Below, piece by piece: positions 16,360-40,266 of a stretch of DNA of 64,000 nt. Each line of letters opens with the position of its first letter. Positions within the stretch are counted from its first letter, which is position 1. The DNA comes from Escherichia coli (GTDB lineage Bacteria; Pseudomonadota; Gammaproteobacteria; Enterobacterales; Enterobacteriaceae). Where the stretch lies: assembly GCF_003991155.1 (NCBI RefSeq), contig NZ_CP031293.1; one strand, written 5' to 3'. The position numbers were made by a program, and so were the translations under genes. The notes below the pieces were generated by a model. That model made no database searches and was not told where the DNA came from. It worked only from the letters and a program-made list of their open reading frames with translations.

Positions 16360-18348
16360 ATGTCATTAAAAGGATTGCGTTTTACGCTGAAAGTGGACGG
16401 CCAAAATGCGGACACCTTCGCCGTGGTAAATTTCTGGCTGATGCAGAATTTCTCGTTTCCATTTGTTATGGATGTAGATGTCGCCAGCAAGGAGTTTGGT
16501 ATTCAAGCAAATAGCTTGCTGGAAAAAAAAGCCACGCTGATCATCTGGCAGGGCCCCAAGGCGCTGCGTTATGTATCGGGTGTAATTGCCAGTTTCGGAA
16601 TGAAAGAAAACAATAACTGGCAGATGCAGTACCGCCTTCGTATCCAGCCACCTCTGTGGCGTAGCGGCCTACGCCAGAATTTCCGTATTTTTCAACAGCA
16701 AGATATTGCAACTATTTCAGCCACCTTACTGGATGAGAATGGTGTAACAGACTGGGAGCCATCCTTAAACAGTGAGCACCCTACTCGCGAGTTCTGCGTA
16801 CAGTATGGCGAAACGGACCTGGCATTTCTGTCACGGCTATGGGCAGAAGAAGGCATTTATTTTTATGATAAGTTAGCCCCGAACGGCCCGGATCAGAAAC
16901 TGACATTATGTGATGATGCAGCAGGTTTGTCGCCAATAGGAACCATTACCTTCAACCCAAATACCCGAACTGAAGCCGACAAGGAGTGCATCAATGCGTT
17001 TCATTACGAAGCTAATGTTCGTCCTTCATCAATACTGAGCAAAGACTACACCTTTAAAACCCCCGGCTGGGAAGGCAAATATATCCGACAGGGCGAGAAT
17101 CTGAACAACCAGTTTGAACAGTATGAAATCTATGACTACCCAGGACGTTTCAAGGATGAACAGCACGGGCAGGATTTTACCCGTTATCAGATGGATGGGT
17201 TGCGTAATGATGCGGAATTAGGCAGCGGTAGCAGCAATTCGCCGAGGCTATGGCCAGGAACCCGTTTCAAACTGGAGAACCATCCACAGAAAACCCTGAA
17301 CCGGGAATGGCAAGTGATCGGTAGCACACTAACGGGCGAACAGCCGCAGGCATTACATGGTAGCCAGGGTTACGGAACCTCGATGCATAACCAGTTTACT
17401 GTTATCCCGGCAGACCGTACCTGGCGTCCACAGCCAATGATGAAGCCAAAGGTAGATGGTCCACAAAGTGCCATTGTCACCGGTCCGGCTGGCGAGGAAA
17501 TTTTCTGCGATGAACATGGCCGGGTACGGGTGAAGTTTCACTGGGACAGAACCAAAACCAAAGATGAGAATAACTCCTGTTGGGTACGAGTGTCACAAGC
17601 CTGGGCTGGAGCCGGATTCGGCAACCTTGCCATTCCGCGTATAGACCAGGAAGTGATTGTCGATTTTCTTAACGGCGATCCCGACCAGCCCATCATCATG
17701 GGACGTACTTATCACCAGGATAACCGCTCTCCCGGTGGTCTGCCTGGCACCAAAACGCAGATGACTATCCGTTCAAAAACCTACAAAGGTGAGGGTTTTA
17801 ACGAACTACGTTTTGAGGATGCGACCAGTAACGAACAGCTTTATATGCACGCCCAGAAGGACATGGTGACAGAGGTACTGCATGACCGGACGACAACAGT
17901 GGATCACGACCATACCGAAACAGTGAAGAATAACCAGACGGTCACAGTAGTTGTTGGTCAGACGGTCAATGTGGGCAGTAAAAAAGAAGGCGGACACGAC
18001 CAGAAAGTGACGGTTGCCCACGACCAGACAGTCACGGTTCAGAACAACCAGACGCTGAATGTCACAGAAAAGCGTGAAAAAAATGTGGGTGGAGACCAGA
18101 AGGTCACTATCACTGGCGGCGATGATGAAACTGTCATGAAGTCGCAAAAGGTAACAGTAAAAGAAAACTATACGCTTGATGTCACCAAAGAAACGAAGAT
18201 TATTTCCGGCGAGTCGATTGAGCTTATCTGTGGCTCCTGCTCCCTGAAAATGGAAAAAGGTGGCAAGGTAACAATCTCCGGCTCAGAGTTTGATTTTACT
18301 GCTGGTGGCCTTGTGCATATCAACGGTAAAGACGTATTTATCAACTGA
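16360..18348 (+). CDS. vgrG: VgrG (TssI) spike protein, no C-terminal extension
   Basis: 662 aa; gp27/gp5-like; C-terminal beta-helical repeats (VTVAHDQTVTVQNNQTLNVTEKREKNVGGDQKVTITGGDDETV). Confidence 0.9.
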   Translation: MSLKGLRFTLKVDGQNADTFAVVNFWLMQNFSFPFVMDVDVASKEFGIQANSLLEKKATLIIWQGPKALRYVSGVIASFGMKENNNWQMQYRLRIQPPLWRSGLRQNFRIFQQQDIATISATLLDENGVTDWEPSLNSEHPTREFCVQYGETDLAFLSRLWAEEGIYFYDKLAPNGPDQKLTLCDDAAGLSPIGTITFNPNTRTEADKECINAFHYEANVRPSSILSKDYTFKTPGWEGKYIRQGENLNNQFEQYEIYDYPGRFKDEQHGQDFTRYQMDGLRNDAELGSGSSNSPRLWPGTRFKLENHPQKTLNREWQVIGSTLTGEQPQALHGSQGYGTSMHNQFTVIPADRTWRPQPMMKPKVDGPQSAIVTGPAGEEIFCDEHGRVRVKFHWDRTKTKDENNSCWVRVSQAWAGAGFGNLAIPRIDQEVIVDFLNGDPDQPIIMGRTYHQDNRSPGGLPGTKTQMTIRSKTYKGEGFNELRFEDATSNEQLYMHAQKDMVTEVLHDRTTTVDHDHTETVKNNQTVTVVVGQTVNVGSKKEGGHDQKVTVAHDQTVTVQNNQTLNVTEKREKNVGGDQKVTITGGDDETVMKSQKVTVKENYTLDVTKETKIISGESIELICGSCSLKMEKGGKVTISGSEFDFTAGGLVHINGKDVFIN

Positions 18349-18358
18349 GGCGTGAAAA

Positions 18359-19540
18359 ATGGAATTTCGTAATCTTACGCCGTTTTCAGTAATGCAATAT
18401 GCAATGGACGACAAACACAACGAGCGTCATTGTGTGGTCGCCATGAAAACCGGCTTCCGGCTGAAGCAGGACGAGAATGGTCAGTGGCAGGCACAACTGA
18501 TGGAAAACCCGCCATTGCCGCTCTGTGTGGAGGATGAGTATGCCGGGGAGATGAACACCTCTCCGGTACTGCGTGAAAGTGACCTTGCTCCTCTGAAACC
18601 CGCCTGTGACATCATCATCAACGGAACAGCTTATACGCCGGGAGGCGCTGCCGTGCCAGAAATGACGGCAGGCGTTCTTATGCTCTCATCGACAGGTGAG
18701 GTGCTGACAGACAAAAAACTGCGGATAACAGGCCAGCGTTTCTACAGGTACCAGCCGTTAATCCGCCAGTGGTATGAAACTGAACCGGAACCCTTCACCT
18801 CCCTGCCGCTTGACTACCGTTACGCTTTCGGCGGCGAATGCCGCGTGGAGGCAGGCAGCGAATATGCCAGCCGCGTCCCCGAAGAATATCGCCTGACCGA
18901 AGACCAGCGTCGGGAACACCCAAACCAGGAGAATCCACCACTGGCGCATATGGCCTGTCCGGTCAATCCACTCGGATTAGGCTATATGCAGCAGTGGTAT
19001 CTGCGGGCCTGTCAGGTTCAGCAGGTTGAAGCGCCCCGCATCATCGCCGTGGACAGCCCATTCACACTCAAACAGTTCACAGACTGTCTCGAAGGGAAAG
19101 CAGACTGGTTTGCCCCCGAATTTCAGCCAGCCGGTTTTGGCTGTATCGGGCGCGCCTGGCTGCCACGGTTATCTCTTGCTGGCACCTATGACCAGGAGTG
19201 GCTGGAAACACAACACCCCGACCTGCCGGATGATTTTGATTTTAACTACTGGAACTGCGCCCCGGATGACCAGCGCATCCCTTTTCCTCTGCCAGGACTG
19301 GGATTTGTACTGACGGGTTTTCGCCCGGAGGGCGATATCCGGTTCACCCTGCCCGCACATGAAGGACGCCTTCTGTTGCGCGCCATGAGCGGGCATCGAA
19401 TGCCATTACCCATGTTGCTGGATACGGTGGAAATCAATACTGACACCCTGACCGTGGCGCTGACCTGGCGCTTTCTGCTGCCCAACAGCACACCACCGGT
19501 GCGGGTACTGGAAGCCCGCTACAGAACAAGGAGCGCCTAA
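18359..19540 (+). CDS. DUF2169-family adaptor protein
   Basis: 393 aa between vgrG and PAAR-Rhs, the typical position for this adaptor family. Confidence 0.65.
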   Translation: MEFRNLTPFSVMQYAMDDKHNERHCVVAMKTGFRLKQDENGQWQAQLMENPPLPLCVEDEYAGEMNTSPVLRESDLAPLKPACDIIINGTAYTPGGAAVPEMTAGVLMLSSTGEVLTDKKLRITGQRFYRYQPLIRQWYETEPEPFTSLPLDYRYAFGGECRVEAGSEYASRVPEEYRLTEDQRREHPNQENPPLAHMACPVNPLGLGYMQQWYLRACQVQQVEAPRIIAVDSPFTLKQFTDCLEGKADWFAPEFQPAGFGCIGRAWLPRLSLAGTYDQEWLETQHPDLPDDFDFNYWNCAPDDQRIPFPLPGLGFVLTGFRPEGDIRFTLPAHEGRLLLRAMSGHRMPLPMLLDTVEINTDTLTVALTWRFLLPNSTPPVRVLEARYRTRSA

Positions 19541-19542: not shown

Positions 19543-22500
19543 ATGGCCGACAACTTTACAGCCCGTAAGCACGGACAATGGAAAGTCATCAGCACCAAAC
19601 CGGATGTCTGTAAAACACCACGCGGAGATTCCACACCGCCTGTCCCCTACCCTGTCACAGCCAATATGGCTGAAGCAGTGATGGTGGTGCAGTCGGTGAA
19701 GCTGAACGGCTGCCCGGCAGTGGTCCTAAACCAGAGCACCATCCCTCAGACAAAGGGCGATGCCGCAGGTGCGGCAAAAGGTGTCAGCAGCGGTACAGTG
19801 GGTGATGTCTGCGAGCCGCTGGACCACAGCGAGACAGTATTTTTTGGCGGCAAGCCGATACTGCGTCACCACGATGAGTTCTGGATGAACAGCCGTAACA
19901 CCATCGGCCTAATCGTGGGCCAGCCGCCACCGGCAGGCGTGCCTGCGGAAGAAGCGGACCCGCCGGATGAACCGGAGACGGAAGAAGAGGAAGAAAAGAG
20001 CAGCTGGCTGGACTGGGTGCAGACAGGACTGGATATTGCCGGGTTTGCACCGGGCTTTGGTTTTTTTGCCGATATGCTGAATGCGGGTATCAGCCTGGCG
20101 CGTGGTAATTATGCTGACGCGTTTATGTCTGTGGCGGCCTCACTTCCGGGGATAGGTGATGCGGCAGCGGCTGGCAGGATGGCAGTTAAAGGACGAAAAG
20201 CAGCAAAGGCGGCTAAAGAAGCCGCCGAACGAGCCGCAAAGAAAAAGCTGGAGAAGGAGGCGGCAATGCGCTCCCGTGCGCTGAGAAAAGCCCAGAAGAA
20301 AGCGGCAGCTAAAAAGAAAGGGGGTATCGTTAAGGGGAAAGCGAAAAATAACAAAGGCAAAGGTAAGGGTGCGGAAAGCAGTGATTGTACCAAACCCGGC
20401 GAACCCGTGGACGCCGGAACCGGCGACTTTCTCCAGCACTTCAGCGTTCTTTCCCTTCCCGGCTCACTTCCTCTCACGCTTTCCCGGTTTTACCGTTCTC
20501 AGGCACAACATGGCGGCATCTTTGGTCCCAAATGGACCGATGAATGGTCCGTATCCCTGAAGGTACACACTGACGGCAACCTGCACTTCACTGACGGTGA
20601 AGGGGTGGAACTGTACTACCCCATTCCGCAGGACGGCATTTTTGAGGGTGCAGCGAACTCCCGCCAGGCACACTACCGGCTGACGGGCGACATGAGCGGA
20701 GAACTGTCGTTGTCCGACCGCCGCACACAGCAGACACAGATTTTTTCTCAGGCAGGCACAGGTACTTATTTGCTGTCTGCCCTTCATGACAATTACGGCA
20801 ACCGGATTGATTTTATCCGCACGGACGGCCTGCTGACAGAAATCCGCCACAGCGACGGCTACACGCTCGCGCTTGCCTGGCTACAGCAGCAACTAATGAG
20901 CATTGACCTGGCAACACCGCGGCGTCAGCGCCTTGTCACCTGTCAGTACGATGATAATGGTTATCTGGCAGAGTGCGATACTTTCCAGTTTTCTCATCTG
21001 TGGCATGAATACACGACTGAAGGGTTTATGACCCGCTGGCGGGATACGGATAAAACCTGCGTGGATATCCGTTACGACCCGCAGGGGCGCGCCATCAGCA
21101 CCCTGTCAACCGAAGGCTATTACGACGACCGTTTTATCTATAACGATGAAGAGCACTGTACCACCTACGTGGATGCAGAAGGCGGCGAAACCCGTTACTG
21201 GTATAACGAAGACGGCCTGGTCACCCACAGCACCGACCCGCTGGGCCGTGAAGAGATTACAGTATGGGAAAACACGCAACTTCAGTCGCGCACCGACGCG
21301 CTGGGGCGTAAAACAGCGTATGAATATAACGATGAGGGCGATATCTGGCATGTTGCCCTGCCGGGCGGCTACAGCCTCTATTACGACTACAACGACGCCG
21401 GGCAGTTAACCCGCCTGACCCTGCCGGGCGACCAGGTATGGCTGTGGGACTACGACGATAAGGGCAGCATGGTCTGCCTGACCGACCCGCAGGGCCGGAA
21501 ACAGCAGTTCAGCTACAGCCAACAGGGTGATTTACTGGCGCGGATTATGCCGGGCGGAGCCACCTGGCGCTGGAGCCATGACGCCCTGCACCAGGTGCGC
21601 GAGACCACTGCGCCGGACGGCGGCGTCACGCAGACTGAACAGGATATGCTGGGCCGCCTGCTGAGTGTGAAAGACCCGCTGGGCTTCACCACGCAGTTCC
21701 GCCACAGCAAAACCCACGCTGGGCCGCTGGGCAGCGTGGAAGAAATTAACCGCCCGGATGGCGTGCGGGAACTGATGCGCCAGAACAGTGAAAAGCTGCC
21801 GGAGAGCTTCACCGATGGCGAAGGCAAAACCACCCGCTACGAATATGGTGCATTTGACCTGTTAACGGCAGTTATCCGCCCGGATGGTGAACGGCTGGAG
21901 TGCCGCTACGACAAGCTGACCCGCCTGACCGAAATCACCAACGCGGAAGGTGAGCACTACCGTCTGGAATATGATAAAGCCGGGCAGCTTATCGCGGAAA
22001 CCGACTTCACCGGGCGCACACTGACCTACAGCTACGATGCGGCAGGCCGCTGTACCCGCACCACCTTCCCGGACGGCACTCACCTGAACCGCCGCTACAA
22101 CGTGACCGACCAGGTAACGGACGAGGAAGTCACCCAGGGCGACAGCAACCGTACCCTGAGCGCCACCACCTTCCTCTATGACACGCTGTGCCGCCTGGTG
22201 GAGGCGAAAAACGATGATGCCATCGTTACGTATGAATATGACAGTGCCAGCAGGGTTGTGGCCGAGACAATCAACGGCAGGCGTACAGAATACAGTTACG
22301 ACAATAATCTCGACACAGTTTCACAGCGCACCACCGCAGGCATCACAGAGCACTTCACCCGCAACCTGATGGGCTATCTGACCACCTGGCAGATAGCCGA
22401 CCATGCCCCGCTGACATTTGAACATGACCTGCGCGGCATGGAAACGTCCCGACGCAGCGAGGCCGGGTTTTACCAGACGCTGGCTTACACCCGCACAGGA

Positions 22501-23961
22501 ATGCCAACGAAGCAGAATGCCGGGGACCACCGGGCCGGCTCGGATGAGCGGAATAAAAGCCTGAAGCGCCAGTGGCTGTATGACAAAGCGTATAATCTGA
22601 CCGCAATCGCCGACTCGCTGCGCGGCTCCATGTTCAACACCATCACGGCGAACGACCAGATAAGCCACGCCACCTGGACGGGTGATTCCAGTCAGTTTCC
22701 GCTGTGTGAGGAACTGTTCACTTACGACAAAAACCTGAACATCACCCGCCGCCAGACCCGGGTGAATGACATACTGGAAAGCGAAACGCACCAGCAGAAC
22801 CGGCATGGACGGGTGATATCAAGTGAGCATGAAGGCTGGCGGCACTCAACGCACCGCATCAATCCGCAGACAGGAAAACCGGAAGAAGGGAAATTTGTCC
22901 GGGTGGTGAACGCCCATAACGTCACCTGGAAATACGATGTTAACGGCAGGCTGATACAGAAGCTGGTCGATAAAGGCGGTTACCGACCGCTGGAATGGCG
23001 CTACAGATGGGACGCGCGCAGCCAGCTAACCGGGCTGGAAACCCCGGATGGTGAACGCTGGGAATACAAATACGACCCCTTCGGCAGGCGCATCAGCAAG
23101 CGCTGCACCAACCGCGACAAACCCGGTATGGATTTTCACTGGAATGGCGACCAGTTGACGGAGGAAATTCCGGTCGGCGCTGACAGTAGTCCTGATACTG
23201 AAAACAGCATCCGCTGGATATATGAGCCGGGAAGTTTTACACCGATTGCGCGTTATGAGAAGGGGCAACTGCATTATGCAGTGACGAACACGGTTGGCCG
23301 CGTACAGGAACTGCTGACAGAAAACGGCCTGATAGTCTGGAAAGGCAAGCAGCAGCTATGGGGCCGTGAGGAAGGCAGAAATAAGAAAGATGCGCCCACA
23401 TGCCGGTTACGTTTTCCGGGGCAGTACGAGGATGTGGAATCAGGGTTGTACTATAACCGGTTCCGGTACTATGATTGCGAGACAGGACAATATCTGTGTG
23501 CTGATCCGTCAGGATTGGACGGAGGGATTAATCCATATGGGTATGTGCATAATCCATTAGGGTGGGCAGACCCTTTTGGGCTAGCCAAAAAGAACGCTCA
23601 GAATACAGTTTTCAGATATCTGAGTGCAGACGATCGTATTCGATATGAGAATGGTCAAAGTTTATTACCTAAAGGTGAGTTTGGTTCAATAGTTGAACAT
23701 GTTGATGGAAAAAATACAGGACATATTTCTGCATCGCTTACCAAGTGTGCAGCTAAAATATTTGATTCGGGCAATGGGTATATAGAAATTGATGTTCAAA
23801 AAATTATCGACAGTGGTATATCATTTATTGATCACAAGAATGTTATGCAAGCGGTTCGTCGTAGCGGCTCTTTAACTAACAGGAGAGATGCCGAAAGAGC
23901 ACTAGAAGTTCTCTTCAAAGGTGAAATTCCCTTTGATGCAATTATTCGTCATGTTATATAA
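19543..23961 (+). CDS. rhs: PAAR-like/Rhs repeat effector with variable C-terminal toxin domain
   Basis: 1472 aa; N-terminal PAAR-like region, Lys/Ala-rich linker, YD repeats, core ending in DPSGLDGGINPYGYVHNPLGWADPFGL, then ~125 aa unique C-terminus. Confidence 0.9.
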   Translation: MADNFTARKHGQWKVISTKPDVCKTPRGDSTPPVPYPVTANMAEAVMVVQSVKLNGCPAVVLNQSTIPQTKGDAAGAAKGVSSGTVGDVCEPLDHSETVFFGGKPILRHHDEFWMNSRNTIGLIVGQPPPAGVPAEEADPPDEPETEEEEEKSSWLDWVQTGLDIAGFAPGFGFFADMLNAGISLARGNYADAFMSVAASLPGIGDAAAAGRMAVKGRKAAKAAKEAAERAAKKKLEKEAAMRSRALRKAQKKAAAKKKGGIVKGKAKNNKGKGKGAESSDCTKPGEPVDAGTGDFLQHFSVLSLPGSLPLTLSRFYRSQAQHGGIFGPKWTDEWSVSLKVHTDGNLHFTDGEGVELYYPIPQDGIFEGAANSRQAHYRLTGDMSGELSLSDRRTQQTQIFSQAGTGTYLLSALHDNYGNRIDFIRTDGLLTEIRHSDGYTLALAWLQQQLMSIDLATPRRQRLVTCQYDDNGYLAECDTFQFSHLWHEYTTEGFMTRWRDTDKTCVDIRYDPQGRAISTLSTEGYYDDRFIYNDEEHCTTYVDAEGGETRYWYNEDGLVTHSTDPLGREEITVWENTQLQSRTDALGRKTAYEYNDEGDIWHVALPGGYSLYYDYNDAGQLTRLTLPGDQVWLWDYDDKGSMVCLTDPQGRKQQFSYSQQGDLLARIMPGGATWRWSHDALHQVRETTAPDGGVTQTEQDMLGRLLSVKDPLGFTTQFRHSKTHAGPLGSVEEINRPDGVRELMRQNSEKLPESFTDGEGKTTRYEYGAFDLLTAVIRPDGERLECRYDKLTRLTEITNAEGEHYRLEYDKAGQLIAETDFTGRTLTYSYDAAGRCTRTTFPDGTHLNRRYNVTDQVTDEEVTQGDSNRTLSATTFLYDTLCRLVEAKNDDAIVTYEYDSASRVVAETINGRRTEYSYDNNLDTVSQRTTAGITEHFTRNLMGYLTTWQIADHAPLTFEHDLRGMETSRRSEAGFYQTLAYTRTGMPTKQNAGDHRAGSDERNKSLKRQWLYDKAYNLTAIADSLRGSMFNTITANDQISHATWTGDSSQFPLCEELFTYDKNLNITRRQTRVNDILESETHQQNRHGRVISSEHEGWRHSTHRINPQTGKPEEGKFVRVVNAHNVTWKYDVNGRLIQKLVDKGGYRPLEWRYRWDARSQLTGLETPDGERWEYKYDPFGRRISKRCTNRDKPGMDFHWNGDQLTEEIPVGADSSPDTENSIRWIYEPGSFTPIARYEKGQLHYAVTNTVGRVQELLTENGLIVWKGKQQLWGREEGRNKKDAPTCRLRFPGQYEDVESGLYYNRFRYYDCETGQYLCADPSGLDGGINPYGYVHNPLGWADPFGLAKKNAQNTVFRYLSADDRIRYENGQSLLPKGEFGSIVEHVDGKNTGHISASLTKCAAKIFDSGNGYIEIDVQKIIDSGISFIDHKNVMQAVRRSGSLTNRRDAERALEVLFKGEIPFDAIIRHVI

Positions 23962-23980: not shown

Positions 23981-24274
23981 ATGCCTGCACTATCTGAGTA
24001 CTCGAATGTACACAACACTGTTTTTAATATTTTGATTTGTAAAGGATATCGATTGTGGCATGAAAAAAAACAAGAAAGATATTATGCCGAAAAAGATGGT
24101 TGGGATTTTGTAGCCAATAGCCCGTGTGCTCTCTTGGGGCTCATTGCTATTTATGAATATAAAAAACCCGATCATTATTATGAGTACTGGTGGAAAGATG
24201 AAGGATTACATTTAGAAAAAAACATTAGTGAAATCGCTCCTGAATATAACTCAATCATTTTAAAAAATAATTAG
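23981..24274 (+). CDS. Putative immunity protein for Rhs C-terminal toxin
   Basis: Start MPALSEYS at 23981 with AGGAAGGAG RBS, immediately after rhs stop; AT-rich small ORF. Confidence 0.5.
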   Translation: MPALSEYSNVHNTVFNILICKGYRLWHEKKQERYYAEKDGWDFVANSPCALLGLIAIYEYKKPDHYYEYWWKDEGLHLEKNISEIAPEYNSIILKNN

Positions 24275-24289
24275 TTGTATACTACTATG

Positions 24290-26030
24290 ATGATGACTCG
24301 GTAATAATAACAAACGAAACCCTCAACGGCAGACGGACGGAATATGGCCACGACGCAGAACAGGATTATGTCACCCGGCGCACCACCGCAGGCATTACGG
24401 AACGTTTCACCCGCGGGTTGATGGGTGAGCTGACATCGTGGCAGATAGCCGACCATGCGCCGCTGGCATTTGAATATGACCTGCGCGGCCAGGAAACATC
24501 CAGACAAAGCGAGGCCGGATTTTACCAGACGCAGGGCTACACGCAGACAGGAATGCTGACAACGCAGCGTTCGGGAAGCCAGGCAGAGCCGGAGGCGAAG
24601 AATAAAGACCTGCAACGCCAGTGGCTGTACGACCATGCGTATAACCTGACGATGATATCGGACACGCTGCGCGGGACGATGGTCAACAGCGTGACAGCGA
24701 ACGACCAGATAAGCCATGCCACCTGGACGGGCAGCAGTAATATGCCGATGAGTGAGGAACGCTTCCTCTACGACAAAAACCTGAATATCACCGCCGCCAG
24801 ACCTGGGTGAACGAGGTACTGGAGAGCGAGACACATCAGCAGCAACAGCATGGCCGGGTGGCGTCGCGTGGACACAAAGAATGGCGACACTCAACGCACC
24901 GGATTAACCCGGACACTGGCAAGCCGGAGGAAGGGAAATTTGTCCGGGTGGTCAACGCGCACGGTATCACCTGGAAGTACGATATTAACGGTCGTCTGGT
25001 GGAGAAGCTGGTCGATAAAGGTGGCTATCGCCCTCTCCAGTGGCGTTACAAATGGGATTCACGCAGCCAGTTGACCGGGCTGGAAACACCGGATGGTGAA
25101 CGCTGGGAGTATAAATACGACCCGTTCGGCAGGCGCATCAGCAAACGCTGTACCAGCCACGATAAACCCGGTATGGATTTTCACTGGAACGGCGACCAGT
25201 TGACGGAGGAAATTCCGGTTGGTGTGGATGGCAAACCGGAAGACGAAAACGCCATCCGCTGGATATACGAGCCGGGAGATTTCACGCCGTTTGCGCGTTA
25301 TGAGAAGGGGCAACTGAATTATGCGGTGACGGACACGGTTGGACGAGTACAGGAACTGCTGACCGAAGACGGCCTGATTGTCTGGAAAGGCAAGCAGCAG
25401 CTATGGGGACGTGAGGAAGGCATCAATAAGGGCGATGCACCCACCTGTCGGTTACGTTTTCCGGGGCAGTATGAGGACACAGAATCGGGACTGTACTATA
25501 ACCGGTTCCGGTACTATGATTGCGGGACGGGGCAGTATATCTCTTCAGATCCGATTGGGCTGAGAGGGGGAATAAAACCATATGGCTATGTTCATAGTCC
25601 ATTAAATTATATTGACCCATTAGGTTTAGCTAACGCTAAAGTTATAGATAATGTTTTGCATATTGTGGATAAATTTGGAGTAAATGGGGCTGCTCCTGAT
25701 ACTGCAGCATCCAGAGAATTGGCTGAGTTTGTAAAAAGATGGAACGAGCAGATAGTGGCGAATGGTGGTTCAATGGCCAGACGTTCTGTTTGTAAAGAAG
25801 TCAGAAAAGCAGCAAGTGAAGCCGCCGCTGCTGAGAGAAAACTTAACCCAAGTTTATATGCTAATGGTGAAGTGGCGGGGCATATTCCAGATGTTGGATG
25901 GGGTGGAAAAATTGATGGTCCGTTTATGCCGTTAAGTCCAAAAGTAAATTCTTATATTGGTGGGTTAACTCAAGCAGTGCCTGTTGGTACAACTTATACA
26001 TCGGTAAGAATAGTGGACATTATACTATGA
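24290..26030 (+). CDS. Orphan rhs C-terminal cassette 1 (core fragment + distinct toxin tip), frameshifted near 24793
   Basis: Nucleotide and protein similarity to 22270..23580 of the main rhs; 1-bp deletion (atcaccgccgccagac vs atcacccgccgccagac) breaks the frame; ORF 24807..26030 carries DPLGL followed by a different C-terminus. Confidence 0.75.
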
Positions 26031-26554
26031 AAAAATTAAAAGAATTGATTAACGATATTTTGGTTGATTTAAAAATAAATATAACGGAATTACCTGTCAC
26101 TTTACACAGCCATGATAAAGTACCCACGCTAAAAAAAGATTACTATAGAAATCTTAGCCCTATGCTAAAGGTTAGATTTGGTATGTTCTCTAGTTGGAAG
26201 AATGCAACACATGGGGATTGGCTTTCAATAGAAGAGATGATGGAAATTTGGCGTGATGATTTGGTAATAAATGACCGATTGTGGCGAATTAAGGAGAATC
26301 AGATAGCTGCTCGTAATAATTGGGACAATGATGCTTCTTCGCTTTTCAAAAATAATAGATTATCACTTTTTGCTGGAAGTGAGTCTACCTATGAACGAAT
26401 ATATCTGCTTTGGTTAGATAGTGAAATTGAACCTGAGATATGGGTATATGACTGCAATGGTGAATCGAGATATAAAAATCTAGAGTCTTATTTAAATGCA
26501 TATATAAATGACGATGTTAGTGCTAGTAATGAGTCATGGAGAGCCAAATACTGA
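26027..26554 (+). CDS. Putative immunity protein for orphan toxin 1
   Basis: 175 aa, ATGA overlap with toxin stop, AT-rich. Confidence 0.5.
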   Translation: MKKLKELINDILVDLKINITELPVTLHSHDKVPTLKKDYYRNLSPMLKVRFGMFSSWKNATHGDWLSIEEMMEIWRDDLVINDRLWRIKENQIAARNNWDNDASSLFKNNRLSLFAGSESTYERIYLLWLDSEIEPEIWVYDCNGESRYKNLESYLNAYINDDVSASNESWRAKY

Positions 26555-26704
26555 CGCAGCGACAGTCACCCAGTTAGAGTGAGAGCATGAAAAATATGTT
26601 TTTATACAATATTTTATCGCTATATTTTTGTCATCTGTTTTTGCGCGAAAATCACTCGACAATTTGCATGATATAACCAATTACTCATTAAATTTACCTG
26701 CAGC

Positions 26705-28310
26705 CTAGTAGGGCTGTCTGACCACCTGGCAGATAGCGGACCATGCCCCGCTGACATTTGAGCATGACCTGCGCGGCATGGAAACCTCCCGACGCAGCGG
26801 GGCCGGATTTTACCAGACGCTGGCTTACACGCGCACAGGGATGCCAGCGAAGCAGAATGCCGGGGACCACCAGGCCGGGCCGCATGAGCGAAATAAAAGC
26901 CTGGAGCGGGAATGGCTTTACGACAAAGCGTATAACCTGACCGCAATCGCCGACTCGCTGCGCGGCTCCATGTTCAACACCATCACGGCAAACGACCAGA
27001 TAAGCCACGCCACCTGGACGGGTGATTCCAGCCAGTTTCCGCTGTGCGAGGAGCTGTTCACTTACGATAAAAACCTGAACATCACCCGCCGCCAGACCCG
27101 TGTGAATAACGTCCTGGAAAGCGAAACGCACCAGCAACAGCAGCATGGCCGGGTGATATCCAGTGAGCATGAAGGCTGGCGGCACTCAACGCACCGCATC
27201 AATCCGCAGACAGGAAAACCGGAAGAAGGGAAATTTGTCCGGGTGGTGAATGCCCATAACATCACCTGGAAATACGATGTTAACGGCAGGCTGGTACAGA
27301 AGCTGGTCGATAAAGGTGGCTACCGCCCTCTCGAATGGCGCTACAGATGGGATGCAAGAAGCCAGCTAACCGGACTGGAAACCCCGGATGGCGAACGCTG
27401 GGAATATAAATACGACCCGTTTGGCAGGCGCATCAGCAAACGCTGCACCAACCGCGACAAACCCGGCATGGATTTTCACTGGAACGGCGACCAGCTAACG
27501 GAGGAAATTCCGGTTGGCGTTAACGGTAAACCGGAAGACGAAAACGCCATCCGCTGGATATACGAGCCGGGAGATTTCACGCCGTTTGCGCGTTATGAGA
27601 AGGGGCAACTGAATTATGCGGTGACGGACACGGTTGGACGAGTACAGGAACTGCTGACCGAAGACGGCCTGATTGTCTGGAAAGGCAAGCAGCAGCTATG
27701 GGGACGTGAGGAAGGCATCAATAAGGGCGATGCACCCACCTGTCGGTTACGTTTTCCGGGGCAGTATGAGGACACAGAATCGGGACTGTACTATAACCGG
27801 TTCCGGTACTATGATTGCGAGACGGGGCAGTATATCTCTTCAGATCCCATAGGATTACTTGGGGGGATAAATCCTTATGGATATGTTCGTAACTCGCTGG
27901 AATTGATTGACCCTTGGGGGCTAGACAGTAAACGCGCTCGACTCCTCAAACAAAAAGGATTCCAAGAACATCATATTATCAGCGATAAAAACAGCTTAAC
28001 CAAAAACCATCCATTGTTGAAGGCCGCGGCATACGACCTACAGAAAATGAAAAACAAGATTTTCTTACCTACAAAATGTGAACTTCATGCAACTCGATCC
28101 ATTCATAAAGGGAGGCATCAAAAAAAGGTAAGTGAAAACCTGGCAAATGAAATGGACAAAGTGTTAGAACACGGGAGAAAACATGGGTGGACGCAAAAAC
28201 AATACAGTGACGCACTTGACGAAATAGTTGCTAAAGAAAGAGCCCTCTTGAAATCTGGCCATAGAGCTTTAAATAAAAACAGACGTGCATGGTCTGTTTT
28301 ACTAACTTAA
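26705..28310 (+). CDS. Orphan rhs C-terminal cassette 2 with HNH/AHH-like nuclease tip
   Basis: Similarity to main rhs from ~22380 onward; core ends DPWGL; C-terminus has EHHIIS ... H ... H pattern resembling the AHH-type HNH nuclease toxin domain. Confidence 0.7.
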
Positions 28311-28322
28311 CAGAGAAAATAT

Positions 28323-28880
28323 ATGTATAGATGGACAATCCCAGAACAATATGCCAATAAGTATATTGGAGAATATCAATATGAATCTTTTGATTACTTA
28401 CTTTTTTCTCATAGCACACCAATTGAAAGAGTTGAGAATATCAATCCAGTCATTATCTACGCGATGCCCGATGAAATGATAAATAAATATGATTGCTTGC
28501 CAAATAGTTCATTGATCCCCGTAGTTAATGAACGACTAAAGGACTTCCTGGAAACACATGCCAAAGGTAATGTTGAGTTTCATAAAATAGACCTTCACAC
28601 GAACAATGGACTCAAAGATGGTTTTTATCTTTTGAATACACTCACAAAACTACCGTTAATTGATATGCAGCACTCTCATTGCCAGTATATTCCCGGAACA
28701 ACAGCGATCATGGGGTTTGAACAGGTTTTTTTTATTGAAGAGCCTCCGGAAGATTTTTGCATTGCACGATGCGCAGAATATTCATCTTATCTTATGTTAT
28801 CTGATTCATTAGTAAAAAAAATGAAAAAAGAAAAATTTAAAGGAATTTCATATTCGAAAGTTCCTGTTCACCGAGGTTAA
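28323..28880 (+). CDS. Putative immunity protein for orphan toxin 2
   Basis: 185 aa ORF 13 nt after the toxin stop; AT-rich. Confidence 0.5.
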   Translation: MYRWTIPEQYANKYIGEYQYESFDYLLFSHSTPIERVENINPVIIYAMPDEMINKYDCLPNSSLIPVVNERLKDFLETHAKGNVEFHKIDLHTNNGLKDGFYLLNTLTKLPLIDMQHSHCQYIPGTTAIMGFEQVFFIEEPPEDFCIARCAEYSSYLMLSDSLVKKMKKEKFKGISYSKVPVHRG

Positions 28881-28966
28881 AATAATTGGACATATAACAA
28901 ATATATTAAATCGGTAGCATCTCCAGGGAAGGATCATCGTATTCGTATGCCGTAGGCACGCCGTAA

Positions 28967-29360
28967 TCTGGTATAACGAAGACGGCCTGCTCACCCGCAG
29001 CACCGACCCGCTCGGTCGGGAAGAGATTACGGTATGGGAGAACACGCAACTCCAGTCACGCACCGATGCACTGGGGCGTAAAACAGCGTATGAATACAAC
29101 GATGAGGGCGATATCTGGCACGTCGCCCTGCCGGGTGGTTACAGTCTGTACTATGACTACAACGACGCCGGACAGTTAACCCGCCTGACCCTGCCGGGCG
29201 ACCAGGTATGGCAGTGGGATTACGACGATAAGGGCAGCATGGTCTGCCTGACCGACCCGCAGGGCCGGAAACAGCAGTTCAGCTACTGCGCACAGGGGGA
29301 TTTACTGGCGCGGATTATGCCGGGCGGAGCCACCTGGCGCTGGAGCCATGACGCCCCAGG
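28967..29360 (+). pseudogene. Internal rhs core fragment
   Basis: Translation WYNEDGLLTRSTDPLGREEITVWENTQLQSRTDALGRKTAYEYNDEGDIWHVALPGG matches the main rhs at ~21185..21585; no start or stop context. Confidence 0.8.
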
Positions 29361-29384
29361 GAACAGGGAAAGATCACGTAACGC

Positions 29385-30658
29385 TGCTTTTTTGTACTAA
29401 ATAATTCGCATTTTATGTTTAAAAATTGAGATATTCCTCATTACCTAAAGCTTTTTTTTATTGCTTATACATGATCAAATACTCCTTACATAATTAAGGA
29501 GAACAAAATGGAACTTAAAAAATTGATGGAACATATTTCTATTATCCCCGATTACAGACAAGCCTGGAAAGTGGAACATAAATTATCGGATATTCTACTG
29601 TTGACTATTTGTGCCGTTATTTCGGGTGCAGAAGGCTGGGAAGATATAGAGGATTTTGGGGAAACACATCTCGATTTTTTGAAGCAATATGGTGATTTTG
29701 ATAATGGTATTCCTGTTCACGATACCATTGCCAGAGTTGTATCCTGTATCAGTCCTGCAAAATTTCACGAGTGCTTTATTAACTGGATGCGTGACTGCCA
29801 TTCTTCAGATGATAAAGACGTCATTGCAATTGATGGAAAAACACTCCGGCATTCTTATGACAAGAGTCGCCGCAAGGGTGCGATTCATGTCATTAGTGCG
29901 TTCTCAACAATGCACAGTCTGGTCATCGGACAGATCAGGACGGATGAGAAATCCAATGAAATTACAGCTATCCCTGAACTTCTTAACATGCTGGATATTA
30001 AAGGAAAAATCATCACAACTGATGCGATGGGTTGCCAGAAAGATATTGCAGAGAAGATACAAAAACAGGGCGGTGATTATTTATTCGCTGTAAAAGGAAA
30101 TCAGGGGCTGCTTAATAAAGCCTTTGAGGAAAAATTTCCACTGAAAGAATTAAATAATCCAGAGCATGACAGTTACGCCATTAGTGAAAAGAGTCACGGC
30201 AGAGAAGAAATCCGTCTTCATATTGTTTGCGATGTCCCTGATGAACTTATTGATTTCACGTTTGAATGGAAAGGACTGAAGAAATTATGCGTGGCAGTCT
30301 CCTTTCGGTCAATAATAGCAGAACAAAAGAAAGAGCCAGAAATGACGGTCAGATATTATATCAGTTCTGCTGATTTAACCGCAGAGAAGTTCGCCACAGC
30401 AATCCGAAACCACTGGCACGTGGAGAATAAGCTGCACTGGCGTCTGGACGTGGTAATGAATGAAGACGACTGCAAAATAAGAAGAGGAAACGCAGCAGAA
30501 TTATTTTCAGGGATACGGCACATTGCTATTAATATTTTGACGAATGATAAGGTATTCAAGGCAGGGTTAAGACGTAAGATGCGAAAAGCAGCCATGGACA
30601 GAAACTATCTCGCGTCAGTCCTTGCGGGGAGCGGGCTTTCGTAATCTTGCCCTGGGGT
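29385..30658 (+). mobile_element. ISAs1-family (H-repeat) insertion sequence, copy 1
   Basis: Near-identical ~120 bp leader and 3' end shared with copy 2; contains intact transposase ORF; boundaries approximate. Confidence 0.7.
29508..30644 (+). CDS. ISAs1-family transposase (H-repeat-associated protein)
   Basis: 378 aa, recognisable H-rpt/ISAs1 transposase sequence ([18 protein letters not shown]...). Confidence 0.85.
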
Positions 30659-30813: not shown

Positions 30814-31647
30814 ATGGCTTTCGTTTCTGCGTTAGTTAATTTGCGTTATGATTTAAACAAATATATTGTAGAGTTACGACGCATTTCAAATCTTGCCGCG
30901 ACATTTCTTATGGAAGATGATTTTATTAAGAATTTCTATCTTAATGAAGTTGAAATAAGCATAAATAATTATAATTTTAGATTCAATAACGAGCGAAACC
31001 CATTCAAGCAAAGGGAAATAGTTTTTGAACTTAAAGAAGAAGTTGAGTTGGAAAAAAAAGAATATGATATATTAAGAATGAAAGATCATGTTACTTATAT
31101 GGTAACTGATATGTTTGAAGAACAAGGCGTGTTAAAATATGTAAAAATATTTGGAGGGGTTGCTACAGGAGGAATAGAACTTTTCACTGCCTATGGGTAT
31201 TATCAATTGGGTAAAACATTACACCTTAGAAGATTACGTGGGATAGCAATTGTTTTTGCTTCTTATGGCGTTGATAATATATGGGAGTCAGTCTCTCCTT
31301 TGATTTTTGAAGAAGCGAATGCAGGGCCTCTTAGACGTGTTATTCGGGGAATTGCTGGTGAGTTTGGAATAAGTGAAGATGATTCTGATTTAGGGTATAG
31401 TTTTGTTGAATTTTCATTGTCCTTATATAATACTTTTAATGCAAGAAAATTGTTTCCGAATGAAAATAGGTTAGTTATAGGTGTGGGAAGAAAAAGGCCA
31501 GGGACTGGTAGGCTTTTTAATAATGTAAGCTGGGATTATGCATCTAAATGGTCAAAAATGAATACAAATATGAAGATTTGGAATTTAGGGTATAGCGCTT
31601 ATAAAGCCAAACTGGAATTTTATGATGAGAAATATAAATTTAAATAA
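30814..31647 (+). CDS. Hypothetical protein, AT-rich, between the two ISAs1 copies
   Basis: 277 aa ORF with two hydrophobic segments (YVKIFGGVATGGIELFTAYGYY; GIAIVFASYGV); no family recognised. Confidence 0.4.
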   Translation: MAFVSALVNLRYDLNKYIVELRRISNLAATFLMEDDFIKNFYLNEVEISINNYNFRFNNERNPFKQREIVFELKEEVELEKKEYDILRMKDHVTYMVTDMFEEQGVLKYVKIFGGVATGGIELFTAYGYYQLGKTLHLRRLRGIAIVFASYGVDNIWESVSPLIFEEANAGPLRRVIRGIAGEFGISEDDSDLGYSFVEFSLSLYNTFNARKLFPNENRLVIGVGRKRPGTGRLFNNVSWDYASKWSKMNTNMKIWNLGYSAYKAKLEFYDEKYKFK

Positions 31648-32169: not shown

Positions 32170-33445
32170 GAACTCTTTTTGTACTAAATAATTCGCATTT
32201 TATGTTTAAAAATTGAGATATTCCTCATTGTCTGAAGCTGTTTTTTATTGCTTATACATGATCAAATACTCCTTACATAATTAAGGAGAACAAAATGGAA
32301 CTTAAAAAATTGATGGAACATATTTCTATTATTCCCGATTACAGACAAGTCTGGAAAGTGGAACATAAATTGTCTGATATTCTACTGCTGACTATTTGTG
32401 CCGTTATTTCGGGTGCAGAAGGTTGGGAAGATATAGAGGATTTTGGGGAAACACATCTCGATTTTTTAAAACAATACGGTGATTTTGAAAATGGTATTCC
32501 TGTTCACGATACCATTGCCAGAGTTGTATCCTGTATCAGTCCTGCAAAATTTCACGAGTGCTTTATTAACTGGATGCGTGACTGCCATTCTTCAGATGAT
32601 AAAGACGTCATCGTAATTGATGGAAAAACACTCTGGCATTATTATGACAAGAGTCGCCGCAAGGGAGCGATTCATGTCATTAGTGCGTTCTCAACAATGC
32701 ACAGTCTGGTCATCGGACAGATCAAGACGGATGAGAAATCCAATGAGATTACAGCTATCCCAGAACTTCTTAACATGCTGGATATTAAAGGAAAAATCAT
32801 CACAACTGATGCGATGGGTTGCCAGAAAGATATTGCAGAGAAGATACAAAACAGGGAGGTGATTATTTATTCGCTGTAAAAGGAAACCAGGGGCGGCTAA
32901 ATAAAGCCTTCGAGGAAAAATTTCCGCTGAAAGAATTAAATAATCCAGAGCATGACAGTTACGCAATGAGTGAAAAGAGTCACGGCAGAGAAGAAATCCG
33001 TCTTCACATTGTTTGCGATGTCCCTGATGAACTTATTGATTTCACGTTTGAATGGAAAGGTCTGAAGAAATTATGCGTGGCAGTCTCCTTTCGGTCAATA
33101 ATAGCAGAACAAAAGAAAGAGCCAGAAATGACGGTCAGATATTATATCAGTTCTGCTGATTTAACCGCAGAGAAGTTCGCCACAGCAATCCGAAACCACT
33201 GGCACGTGGAGAATAAGCTGCACTGGCGTCTGGACGTGGTAATGAATGAAGACGACTGCAAAATAAGAAGAGGAAACGCCGCAGAATTATTTTCAGGGAT
33301 ACGGCACATCGCTATTAATATTTTAACGAATGATAAGGTATTCAAGGCAGGGTTAAGACGTAAGATGCGAAAAGCTGCCATGGACAGAAACTATCTCGCG
33401 TCAGTCCTTGCGGGGAGCGGGCTTTCGTAATCTTTCCCTGGAGTG
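32170..33445 (+). mobile_element. ISAs1-family insertion sequence, copy 2 (transposase frameshifted)
   Basis: Same leader and ends as copy 1; direct orientation; boundaries approximate. Confidence 0.7.
32295..33430 (+). pseudogene. ISAs1-family transposase, frameshifted
   Basis: Split into ORFs 32295..32879 and 32819..33430; 1-bp deletion in an A-run near 32850 relative to copy 1 (acaaaaacagggcgg vs acaaaacagggagg). Confidence 0.8.
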
Positions 33446-35448
33446 AGTATTTTGATTTACTGAAATATCTTATTAGAAACGGATATATTGATGAAACATA
33501 TAATGACTATATAACATATTTCTATGAAAACAGTTTAAACCGGAGTGACAAAGCTTTTTTAAGAAGTATTTCCGATAAAAAAGGGAAAGATTTTTCTTAT
33601 GCTTTGAATAACCCCTCATTAATAGCAAGTCGATTACAACTTTATGATTATAGCCAGCAAGAAACGTTAAATTTTGATTTGTTGGATCACCTCTTGGATT
33701 CATTGACTCAACATACAACACAACTTAAGACATTTATATCTCAACTGAAAAAAGATAAAAATCTCCGATTTATTAAAGAGTACATGGACACTGAACGTAA
33801 TATTTCAAGGTTAATCCCTTTATTAAATCAGCAGTGGAGTGATTTTTTTCAATTGATGTTGAATGAAAAATTATATACACAACAACAAATAAAATCATAT
33901 TCCCTGGACAGTCTTTATTTTTCAAATCAAGACACTTTATTAAAAGTCAACCATAATGGCTGTCTATCACAGTATATATCTGAACATAAAACATATCTAA
34001 ATATAGAACAGCCTCAAATTCAAATGCTAATAGATAAGTTTAAATGTTTAGATATTTTATTTAAGAATTTATCATATAACAACTCAGAAGCATCTTTATT
34101 TTCAGCCGTATATAAAGAGTCACTTTATGAACTTAATTATCATAATTTAAAAGAGCTTATTTGCTATGAATACAAATGTGCAGACGAAGATAAAATCAAA
34201 CACCAAAACTTCACCATATTACTAAGCAATGCATCAACATATCTTTATAAAAAGATAGATAAAAATATCGAAAAATATATAGCTATAGTTCTCGAAAATT
34301 GTGAGAATAGTATAGCTGATGCTGAAAATGCAGTTGTTGTAATTATTAATAAATCAGGAATTGATGAGGAAATAAAAAAATCATACATAGCAAAACTCAA
34401 TAATAGATTGAGTGACTTAAGTAAAATAGATGAATCAAATATGTGGTCTTACTTATTAGACCAACGAAAAATAGAGTATACTGCTGAGAATATTATTTTT
34501 TATTTTTCTCAGCATAGTGAATTAGATGAAACAATAATTAAATTTATAGATAGCGAAAAATCTATTACACTAGACTATTATAGTGGGTTTACAGACGATA
34601 TCAAAGAGAGATTTTTCGACAAGGTCATCATTTGTGAACAAATTAGCGATAACAAATACTTCGAGATATTATCTTCATTAGACTATTGCTATGAATCATT
34701 TGATATATCCGGTTTGCAGGATGCGAAGATAAAAGTACTTATCGACACTAATATAATTCGAATGTCCATTCTGAATCTAGAGTTTCTAAGAACTACATAT
34801 CCTAATAACCTTATGCATTATATAAATAAAAATATAATCGACTATATTAAACTACAGACAGGTGAATCTGCTGTTAGTGACACAAATGAAATTTTGAACG
34901 TCTTAGAATTAGATATTGATGATTCACAAAAAGAAAAGCTATCAATGATAGTAGATACTCCAATCTCTATTCAAAATAATAAATACTCAACTCTCTTTAA
35001 GAAACACATCCTCACAAATAAATTAGATATAAATGACATCCCTTATCTCATAGAAAATTATGGCACATTAGTAGCACTTCAATCGACAATTCTAATCATT
35101 TTAAGTGGTCACGTCAATGAGGTAAAAGATCATGCTGATAAATTATCGATTAACTTGTTAGAGGTCTTAATAAAGGATGCTCATTTTATCCATGATGATA
35201 ATGTAGAATTATTTGTAAAGCAGATAACTAACATGAATAAAATACAAATCAAGAAGTTTCTAAAACTGATTAATTCTTCTGAGTTAACTATCTTATTAGA
35301 TAAAAAATTGGCATCGATAAAAATAAGCTCGTCTAATGAAAAAATACTTAAGAGTTTCATAACAAATGGATTAATAAAATCCTACAGCCAAAGTACTGAA
35401 GATCCTGAATCATACATAATAGATTTCCCTGAGGAGTTTCTTGATTAA
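33439..35448 (+). CDS. AT-rich hypothetical protein, probably 5'-truncated at the ISAs1 end
   Basis: Frame open from the IS junction (33439) to 35448 (669 codons); no in-frame ATG in the first ~110 codons; Asn/Lys/Ile/Tyr-rich; no family recognised. Confidence 0.5.
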   Translation, partial: WSEYFDLLKYLIRNGYIDETYNDYITYFYENSLNRSDKAFLRSISDKKGKDFSYALNNPSLIASRLQLYDYSQQETLNFDLLDHLLDSLTQHTTQLKTFISQLKKDKNLRFIKEYMDTERNISRLIPLLNQQWSDFFQLMLNEKLYTQQQIKSYSLDSLYFSNQDTLLKVNHNGCLSQYISEHKTYLNIEQPQIQMLIDKFKCLDILFKNLSYNNSEASLFSAVYKESLYELNYHNLKELICYEYKCADEDKIKHQNFTILLSNASTYLYKKIDKNIEKYIAIVLENCENSIADAENAVVVIINKSGIDEEIKKSYIAKLNNRLSDLSKIDESNMWSYLLDQRKIEYTAENIIFYFSQHSELDETIIKFIDSEKSITLDYYSGFTDDIKERFFDKVIICEQISDNKYFEILSSLDYCYESFDISGLQDAKIKVLIDTNIIRMSILNLEFLRTTYPNNLMHYINKNIIDYIKLQTGESAVSDTNEILNVLELDIDDSQKEKLSMIVDTPISIQNNKYSTLFKKHILTNKLDINDIPYLIENYGTLVALQSTILIILSGHVNEVKDHADKLSINLLEVLIKDAHFIHDDNVELFVKQITNMNKIQIKKFLKLINSSELTILLDKKLASIKISSSNEKILKSFITNGLIKSYSQSTEDPESYIIDFPEEFLD

Positions 35449-38008: not shown

Positions 38009-38084
38009 TCCTCTGTAGTTCAGTCGGTAGAACGGCGGACTGTTAATCCGTATGTCACTGGTTCGAGTCCAGTCAGAGGAGCCA
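38009..38084 (+). tRNA. asnV: tRNA-Asn (anticodon GTT)
   Basis: 76 nt TCCTCTGTAGTTCAGTCGGTAGAACGGCGGACTGTTAATCCGTATGTCACTGGTTCGAGTCCAGTCAGAGGAGCCA; cloverleaf consistent, anticodon GTT at 38042..38044; gene symbol inferred from position next to nac. Confidence 0.9.
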
Positions 38085-39636: not shown

Positions 39637-39954
39637 ATGAAAACGATAAAGACCTACATAACTGCCGACGGGCGAGATCTGTATGCAGAGTTTTTTAAAG
39701 GGTTACGCGACCCCATCGCGAAGGCAAAGATCGCTTCCCGGATCAACCGGATGGCTTCGGACAATTTTGGCGACCATAAGCCCTGCCGGGAAGGTGTCTG
39801 GGAACTCAGGATAGATCAAGGGGCTGGGTATCGGGTTTATTACAGCCTGGTGGATGGAGAAGTCGTCCTGTTGATTCTGGCTGGCGACAAGCGTACGCAG
39901 GATGCAGATATAGATGAGGCTATTCGCTGCCTCAAAGACTATTTGAAGAGGTGA
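39637..39954 (+). CDS. RelE/ParE-superfamily toxin, HigB-like
   Basis: 105 aa; 3 nt before the antitoxin-like gene; toxin-first order typical of HigBA. Confidence 0.6.
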   Translation: MKTIKTYITADGRDLYAEFFKGLRDPIAKAKIASRINRMASDNFGDHKPCREGVWELRIDQGAGYRVYYSLVDGEVVLLILAGDKRTQDADIDEAIRCLKDYLKR

Positions 39955-39957
39955 TGT

Positions 39958-40266
39958 ATGGCGAAAGAACGTTTATATGATGATGTCATGGTGGAAGCGC
40001 TCCGGGAAGATCCTGCTTTTGCTCAGGCCTATCTGCATCAGGCATTTCTGGATATGGATGAAGATGGCGGTCAGGAAGCTTTTTTACTCGCGTTACGCCA
40101 TGTTGTTGAAGCGCGGGGAGGAATGGCGACGGTTGCCCAGAAAGCCGGTGTATCGCGTGAATCACTGTACCGCACGCTCTCCCCGACCGGCAACCCGACA
40201 CTGAAAACACTCCGCAGCGTCGTCCACGCCGCAGGTTTTCAGTTCTCTGCGCTGGCAAGTGCCTGA
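39958..40266 (+). CDS. HigA-like antitoxin (HTH)
   Basis: 102 aa; sequence resembles addiction-module antidote proteins (GVSRESLYRTLSPTGNPTLKTL helix-turn-helix region). Confidence 0.6.
   Translation: MAKERLYDDVMVEALREDPAFAQAYLHQAFLDMDEDGGQEAFLLALRHVVEARGGMATVAQKAGVSRESLYRTLSPTGNPTLKTLRSVVHAAGFQFSALASA

Follow-up and report, generated by a model that had tools for sequence, protein, structure and literature searches.

What do partial copies of rhs core sequence represent that follow a full-length rhs gene in Escherichia coli: displaced toxin modules, decaying gene ends or the remains of further complete genes? The stretch of DNA addressed here (the window) comprises 64,000 nt of an E. coli chromosome, and all coordinates refer to it, numbering from window position 1. 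Its sequence agrees at 100 % identity with that of the E. coli AR Bank #0349 chromosome (NZ_CP041996), and the gene annotation was taken from this identical RefSeq record. A complete type VI secretion system (T6SS) cluster is part of the window, and at its end lies a full-length rhs gene (main rhs) with an array of rhs core fragments downstream. Judged from its sequence, the locus very probably holds a series of displaced rhs-CT/rhsI modules, known as orphan or dissociated, that follow a PAAR-like Rhs effector gene linked to the T6SS. Two of the downstream blocks, termed cassettes 1 and 2, each consist of a partial core, a DPxGL boundary motif, an unrelated tip of low G+C content and a small open reading frame (ORF), which is the defining layout of orphan modules. 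Both cassettes are devoid of an N-terminal delivery region and of a genuine translation start.

Core homology blocks and their boundaries

Core homology was measured by blastn of the main rhs gene against the whole window and at the protein level by tblastn. Three core blocks were detected 3' of the main rhs gene, all on the same strand and each with a blastn E-value of 6e-167 or lower. The main gene and the core fragments are located as follows:

19543-23961, + strand: main rhs ORF, 1472 aa (RefSeq name: PAAR-like domain protein)
19543-23583 (end of DPFGL), + strand: PAAR-like N-terminal region and YD-repeat core of the main gene (NCBIfam RHS_core, YD_repeat and Rhs_assc_core; motif position)
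23584-23961, + strand: main tip, 125 aa, predicted ADP-ribosyltransferase-fold toxin
23981-24274, + strand: main-tip immunity candidate, 97 aa counted from ATG (by position and a G+C content of 0.33)
24271-25628, + strand: core fragment of cassette 1 (blastn 24315-25604, 79.5 % over 1297 bp; tblastn from 24271)
26693-27923, + strand: core fragment of cassette 2 (blastn 26693-27892, 89.25 % over 1200 bp)
28968-29356, + strand: block 3, a mid-core fragment (blastn 93.1 % over 389 bp; tblastn 96 % at the amino acid level)

The three homology blocks named in the original prediction were recovered in this search, at the positions given there. Its description of the locus as an array of C-terminal cassettes applies to the two tip-bearing blocks; it does not apply to block 3, which corresponds to positions 21198-21586 (aa 553-681) in the middle of the main core.

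The boundary motif ends at 23583 in the main gene (DPFGL), at 25628 in cassette 1 (DPLGL) and at 27923 in cassette 2 (DPWGL). In cassette 1 the boundary reads SPLNYIDPLGL; in cassette 2 it reads NSLELIDPWGL, the leading P of PxxxxDPxGL being replaced by S. In a three-way alignment, homology holds up to DPxGL and then collapses. Base composition differs accordingly between the parts, with G+C contents of 0.55–0.57 in the cores, 0.37–0.42 in the tips and 0.33–0.34 in the downstream ORFs. An AT-rich ORF had been proposed to follow each orphan toxin, and the ORFs at 26027-26554 and 28323-28880 (G+C 0.33–0.34) agree with this proposal. Likewise, the segments GHIPDVGWGG and EHHIIS, which had been read in the tips of cassettes 1 and 2, respectively, are both present in the translations.

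Profile-profile comparison of tips 1 and 2 with hhalign yielded a probability of 0.2 %. The two tips are thus unrelated by this comparison, and the locus would bear three different toxins on one kind of scaffold. A distant relationship between tips 1 and 2 as AHH/HNH nucleases was considered and rejected on the same negative result. Both orphan tips of the E. coli locus and their immunity ORFs retain every family-invariant residue.

Cassette 1: frameshifted core and an uncurated toxin family

The core fragment of cassette 1 begins directly after the stop codon of the main-tip immunity ORF and is followed by:

25629-26030, + strand: tip 1, 133 aa, uncurated toxin family (invariant His 25881-25883, Asp 25890 and Asn 25947)
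26027-26554, + strand: tip-1 immunity candidate, 175 aa (4-nt overlap between its start and the toxin stop codon)

A frameshift by a 1-bp deletion had been proposed for this cassette, and the alignment with the main gene bears it out: at about 24791 (alignment column 559), ATCACCCGCCGCCAG in the main gene corresponds to ATCACCGCCGCCAG in cassette 1 (about 24789-24792). The deletion shifts the repeat register from 2046 to 2045 and leads to a TGA at 24808-24810, which divides the frame into 24418-24810 and 24807-26030. The two frames are annotated in RefSeq as separate coding sequences. Stop codons are also present upstream, and the reading frame opens only within the core.

Tip 1 has no match in Pfam, in NCBIfam or among PDB sequences. 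A profile search retrieved 121 representative proteins among 1.84 billion, in all but a few of which the domain is C-terminal. These relatives include full-length proteins with PAAR, YD-repeat and Rhs-associated core domains (P0019, P0024 and P0069), and one full-length relative is encoded in a T6SS cluster adjoining VgrG and a DcrB-type chaperone. On the evidence of these relatives, tip 1 belongs to a real toxin family, though one absent from Pfam and NCBIfam. The structural model of tip 1 comprises two strands (residues 81–84 and 98–101) followed by a helix (residues 103–115), with H84, D87 and N106 as invariant residues. It weakly resembles the NucB and Rhs2-CT nucleases, with no match at the sequence level. 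From this model, tip 1 is probably a His-Me/HNH-like nuclease.

The 175-aa ORF belongs to no curated family of Pfam or NCBIfam. Homologues sharing 40–57 % identity with it occupy the position directly 3' of a tip-1-family domain in each of three loci that are unrelated. In L004 (the best match, 57 % identity, E 5e-54) this domain belongs to a full-length PAAR-Rhs, in L005 it is an orphan in another array, and in L006, from Pasteurella, it is a stand-alone tip. Conservation of the pairing in three loci provides good comparative evidence that the 175-aa ORF is the cognate immunity gene of tip 1, and it is accordingly retained as immunity candidate, the role that had been assigned to it by position. 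The neighbourhoods of two homologues resemble arrays themselves. In the metagenomic locus L004 (10626-12950), the PAAR-Rhs with its tip-1 domain is followed by the immunity homologue and then by more orphan core/tip/immunity units. In L005 (4506-11812; also metagenomic), tip 1 is one of several orphans, including PT-HINT/Imm26 units.

Cassette 2: AHH tip and Imm11 ORF

Two features adjoin the core fragment of cassette 2:

27924-28310, + strand: tip 2, 128 aa, AHH-family HNH/EndoVII nuclease domain (HH pair at 27969-27974)
28323-28880, + strand: tip-2 immunity candidate, 185 aa, Imm11 (Pfam PF07791; RefSeq "imm11 family protein")

Near the start of this core fragment, two consecutive in-frame stop codons (TAG TAG) occupy 26706-26711. 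The ORF reaching through to the end of the tip (26778-28310) has as its first ATG (26778) an internal Met codon that is also present in the main core. Tip 2 matches the Pfam family AHH (PF14412) with an E-value of 3e-15 over model positions 12–108 of 111 and keeps H16, H17, H29, H61 and H65, all of which are invariant among its relatives; the resemblance to AHH-type HNH nucleases noted earlier is supported by this match. The ORF at 28323-28880, located 12 nt 3' of the tip, matches Imm11 (PF07791) with an E-value of 1.9e-9 over model positions 38–192 of 194, which supports its proposed role as candidate immunity gene. A word-limited search for full-length Rhs proteins that carry a close relative of tip 2 returned only short AHH proteins, some of which carry Rhs or PT-HINT remnants.

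Main Rhs effector and its delivery genes

The delivery partners of the main Rhs are encoded immediately upstream:

16360-18348, + strand: VgrG (RefSeq annotation)
18359-19540, + strand: DUF2169 accessory protein (RefSeq annotation)

A full set of T6SS core genes precedes this VgrG/DUF2169 pair, and the T6SS genes annotated as intact are tssA, B, C, E, F, G, H, J, K and M, IcmH/DotU, TagH, two Hcp and VgrG. With its Rhs domains, the adjoining VgrG and DUF2169 genes and the full tss set, the main gene has the sequence characteristics of a T6SS PAAR-Rhs effector. The PAAR model itself did not match the main Rhs in the NCBIfam search, and the label PAAR-like follows the RefSeq naming. Neither the main tip nor its immunity ORF could be assigned to a significant family by Pfam, NCBIfam and PDB sequence searches. 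The tip is predicted to adopt an ADP-ribosyltransferase (ART) fold, with R1358, S1396 and E1455 as candidate R-S-E residues. For the immunity ORF, an alternative GTG start at 23921 would extend the product to 117 aa.

Block 3 and its truncation by ISEc1

Block 3 is open but start-less and lacks a tip, an immunity ORF and the DPxGL boundary. Its 3' end is set by an insertion sequence (IS):

29357-30658, + strand: ISEc1 (H-repeat, ISAs1 family), transposase 29508-30644; truncates block 3

The homology to the main gene stops exactly where the left end of ISEc1 starts, at about 29357 (29357-29364), and no continuation of block 3 beyond the IS copies was found by blastn of the main rhs against the window. 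Relative to the main gene, block 3 has a ratio of nonsynonymous to synonymous substitution rates (dN/dS) of 0.07. The left end of ISEc1 is common to thousands of E. coli genomes. The possibility that block 3 is a common E. coli rhs fragment was rejected, as other genomes match the IS end alone.

Divergence and exchange between core copies

Between the core copies, dN/dS amounts to 0.07–0.16. Their divergence would thus date from a time when the segments still belonged to functional genes and would not stem from prolonged decay. Alignment of the cassettes with the main rhs, suggested as a check in the original prediction, revealed a mosaic pattern of identity and mapped the exact tracts. Cassette 2 and the main gene are 90–98 % identical across 22358-23100, but only 80–88 % identical farther 3'. 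Cassettes 1 and 2 share about 75 % identity in their 5' parts, and a tract of 292 bp just 5' of the boundary motif is exactly the same in both (25233-25524 and 27528-27819). The tract extends 14 nt beyond the position that corresponds to the internal rhs transcription start of Salmonella.

The significance of such tracts was assessed by shuffling the mismatches within codon positions in 5000 permutations. For cassettes 1 and 2, the permuted exact run never exceeded 72 bp, and the 292-bp tract was reached in none of the 5000 runs. The main gene and cassette 2 have exact runs of 89, 53 and 41 bp in common (at 22822, 22597 and 22651, respectively), the longest of which was reached in 7 of 5000. 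These exact tracts are direct sequence evidence that segments were exchanged between the core fragments or are shared by them. Between the main gene and cassette 1, only five exact runs of 25–33 bp were found, the longest being 33 bp. All five are located 3' of the frameshift, so that any crossover there would give an intact fusion. At 79.5 % identity, a crossover between the main gene and cassette 1 should be rare, and this cassette should be a poor substrate.

Proposed mechanism and search for switched alleles

The array may have been built up by serial C-terminal displacement: incoming DNA comprising core, tip and immunity gene would recombine into the rhs core, and the earlier tip would be moved downstream. 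Cassettes 1 and 2 would then be former or imported 3' ends of rhs that were displaced in this way. The orphan toxins would not be delivered as they stand, because they lack the N-terminal PAAR/shell part and a proper start, while the orphan immunity genes could still guard against neighbours deploying those toxins. An orphan tip could be joined to the delivery module through RecA-dependent recombination of its core with that of the main gene. For this process, cassette 2 would be the realistic substrate; with cassette 1, the crossover would have to fall 3' of the frameshift. Unless preceded by a duplication of the locus, as shown for Salmonella, a simple crossover would remove the tip and immunity genes in between.

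Switched alleles were searched for in 5426 complete E. coli genomes, using as queries each tip with its immunity ORF and the DUF2169/PAAR end. The island is rare: the DUF2169/PAAR end together with the main tip occurs in 28 of the 5426 genomes, all at least 99.7 % identical, and in these 28 the whole 12.2 kb is colinear, representing the ancestral arrangement. The count for each orphan unit of tip and immunity ORF is exactly 30 complete genomes; the two units co-occur in all of them and are orphans throughout. The two further genomes (L002 and L003, i.e., E. coli 980-2 and UID2309220003) carry an IS3 element abutting a truncated cassette 1; the T6SS cluster and the main rhs are absent, and the tip-1 immunity ORF, cassette 2, the Imm11 ORF, ISEc1 and the DUF4225 gene are retained. 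From this content it follows that the orphan array persists without any delivery gene. Both genomes were considered as possible main-orphan fusions; their arrangement was instead attributed to loss of the main rhs and the T6SS in association with IS3.

Several observations weigh against this reading of the locus. No main-orphan chimera was found among the 30 complete genomes with the array, although this test has little power, since the carriers are 99.7–100 % identical. The identities of 89 % and 79.5 % between the main gene and the cassettes are below the 95 % over 522 bp that recombines in Salmonella (PMC3967940), and the orphan cores described by Jackson 2009 (PMC2935791) are near-identical to the main core. 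Finally, the frameshift in cassette 1, the double stop in cassette 2 and the truncation of block 3 by an IS would also fit plain decay. For the suggested swapping of tips through core homology, the outcome is divided: it is plausible in view of the Salmonella precedent (PMC3967940) and the 292-bp exact tract, but no switched allele backs it and cassette 1, with its longest exact run of 33 bp, is ill suited to it.

Alternative explanations

The cassettes could be inert fossils, i.e., decaying rhs 3' ends that serve neither as toxin reservoir nor for immunity. The damage described above (frameshifted cassette 1, TAG TAG near the start of cassette 2 with no dedicated start codon, block 3 cut by ISEc1) is compatible with this view, as is the lack of switched alleles in the 30 genomes. 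Moreover, a crude scan found the + strand of the cassettes to be free of consensus sigma-70 sites, and the two genomes that lost the T6SS and main rhs keep the remainder passively. However, neither the tips nor the immunity ORFs of the two cassettes are interrupted, and all keep their family-invariant residues, the disruptions being confined to the core fragments, 5' of usable crossover sites. The 292-bp exact tract indicates that the cassettes took part in exchange, and the orphan immunity genes could function on their own. Inertness of the cassettes is considered unlikely.

A different role would fall to the orphan tips if they were expressed from an internal promoter in the 3' part of the core, forming with their immunity proteins pairs akin to type II toxin-antitoxin systems. 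Such internal expression has been reported for main and orphan rhs of Salmonella, with a transcription start 89 nt upstream of the sequence coding for PxxxxDPxGL, and so have P2-like promoters upstream of Rhs tips, E. coli included (PMC7043789). The equivalent positions in the window (23465, 25510 and 27805) fall into a stretch coding for YNRFRYYD, which is identical in the three copies and lies inside the 292-bp exact tract. Conservation of this stretch is explained equally well by the protein motif, and the crude sigma-70 scan revealed no + strand site at these positions. As nothing in that scan exceeded shuffled expectation, with no + strand site in the cassettes, it is uninformative. By analogy with Salmonella such a promoter is conceivable, yet rather improbable.

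That the blocks are remnants of tandem full-length rhs genes, cut down by deletions and IS activity, would accord with block 3 being a mid-core piece adjoining an IS and with core identities of 79.5 % and 89 %, which fit independent genes better than copies of one core, but is very improbable, given that each cassette starts 0–140 nt after the preceding immunity ORF and keeps only the 3' 1.2–1.3 kb of the core, that blastn and tblastn of the main rhs against the window detected no additional PAAR or N-terminal traces between the blocks, and that the same layout recurs in L004 and L005.

A more specific proposal may be made, if only tentatively. Tip 1 and the ORF at 26027-26554 would constitute an uncurated toxin-immunity family (about 120 representative clusters, on PAAR-Rhs and other carriers), the toxin possibly being a divergent DNase of the His-Me-finger type. 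The 292-bp tract would reflect recent gene conversion between the orphans and might have been kept for an internal promoter that drives expression of the toxin and immunity genes without delivery.

Neighbouring genes

A second ISEc1/ISAs1 copy is located at 32176-33444 in direct orientation; it is 96.9 % identical to the first, and its transposase is annotated as frameshifted. The two copies flank a DUF4225 gene (30814-31647) in a composite-transposon-like arrangement. The second copy is followed by a gene for a hypothetical protein of 554 aa (33784-35448).

A second rhs locus occupies 40389-47583 on the minus strand and represents a separate island adjoining another tRNA-Asn gene and an integrase gene. 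It comprises an rhs coding sequence (41795-45883) with 69 % amino acid identity to the main Rhs, a small ORF (41443-41784), and an orphan core with tip (40685-41299) that has its own small ORF (40389-40682). Its 5' end is cut by an IS3 element (46067-47244), beyond which a DUF2169 fragment is located (47248-47583). Overall, three tRNA-Asn genes were identified within 17 kb (38009-38084, 53497-53572 and 55321-55396), two of which adjoin tyrosine integrase genes; one of these integrase genes contains an internal stop. At 39637-40266 a RelE/ParE pair is encoded, and HigA-like genes are likewise present in the tRNA-Asn region. This region, located between cbl/nac and yeeO, looks like a hotspot of stacked genomic islands.

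Significance and comparison with known systems

The locus provides a well-resolved example of Rhs effector diversification, with a predicted ART-fold toxin, a probable nuclease and an AHH nuclease on one scaffold, and it displays the sequence footprint of exchange between cassettes. In addition, it flags two toxin domains and one immunity family outside the curated libraries, the practical value of which is modest. It may serve as a natural test bed for the core divergence tolerated by main-orphan switching (89 % versus 79.5 %). The locus opens no new question.

The closest functional precedent is SPI-6 of Salmonella Typhimurium LT2, with rhs-main (STM0291), rhs-CT-orphan (STM0292) and rhsI genes (Koskiniemi 2014, PMC3967940), where loss of the main tip during main-orphan switching is avoided by prior duplication of the locus. 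Both loci share a T6SS-linked full-length Rhs with a start-less core fragment behind it, which has a tip of another type and an immunity gene (a candidate one in the present locus), and in both the core homology would offer a substrate for main-orphan fusion. In contrast to LT2, the present locus has two tip-bearing orphans, one of them frameshifted, plus a bare fragment. The homology is longer and more diverged (1200 bp at 89 % and 1297 bp at 79.5 % versus 522 bp at 95 %), and no recombinants were observed in 30 complete genomes.

Arrays of dissociated tips have been described for Serratia marcescens Db11 (SMA1610-1616) and for E. coli clade IV rhs (Jackson 2009, PMC2935791). As in these, direct repeats of partial core carry unrelated low-GC tips, some fragments are frameshifted, a tip-less core piece occasionally occurs, and the model of C-terminal displacement applies. 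The published orphan cores are near-identical to the upstream core, whereas those studied here are mosaic and more diverged. The orphan rhs-CT/rhsI and cdiA-CT/cdiI modules of Poole 2011 (PMC3150448) consist of toxin/immunity pairs demarcated by PxxxxDPxGL, as do the predicted pairs here, with orphan tips related to tips of full-length Rhs proteins elsewhere, a relation found here for tip 1. Different from these modules, neither the main tip nor tip 1 with its immunity partner is represented in Pfam or NCBIfam.

With respect to tip 1, the best structural neighbours of the model are Bacillus NucB (6ejs) and Serratia marcescens Rhs2-CT, an atypical HNH DNase (PDB 8cm0/9t38; bioRxiv 10.1101/2025.10.28.685041). 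Shared features are the strand-strand-helix element and the invariant His ending the first strand; tip 1 differs in having no sequence-level match to them, and the immunity proteins are unrelated. The architecture as such is already well documented and not new, the uncurated families of tip 1, its immunity protein and the main tip being a small addition. Compared at the sequence level, the layout of the locus matches the published dissociated-tip and orphan rhs-CT/rhsI arrays feature by feature and differs from them only in degree.

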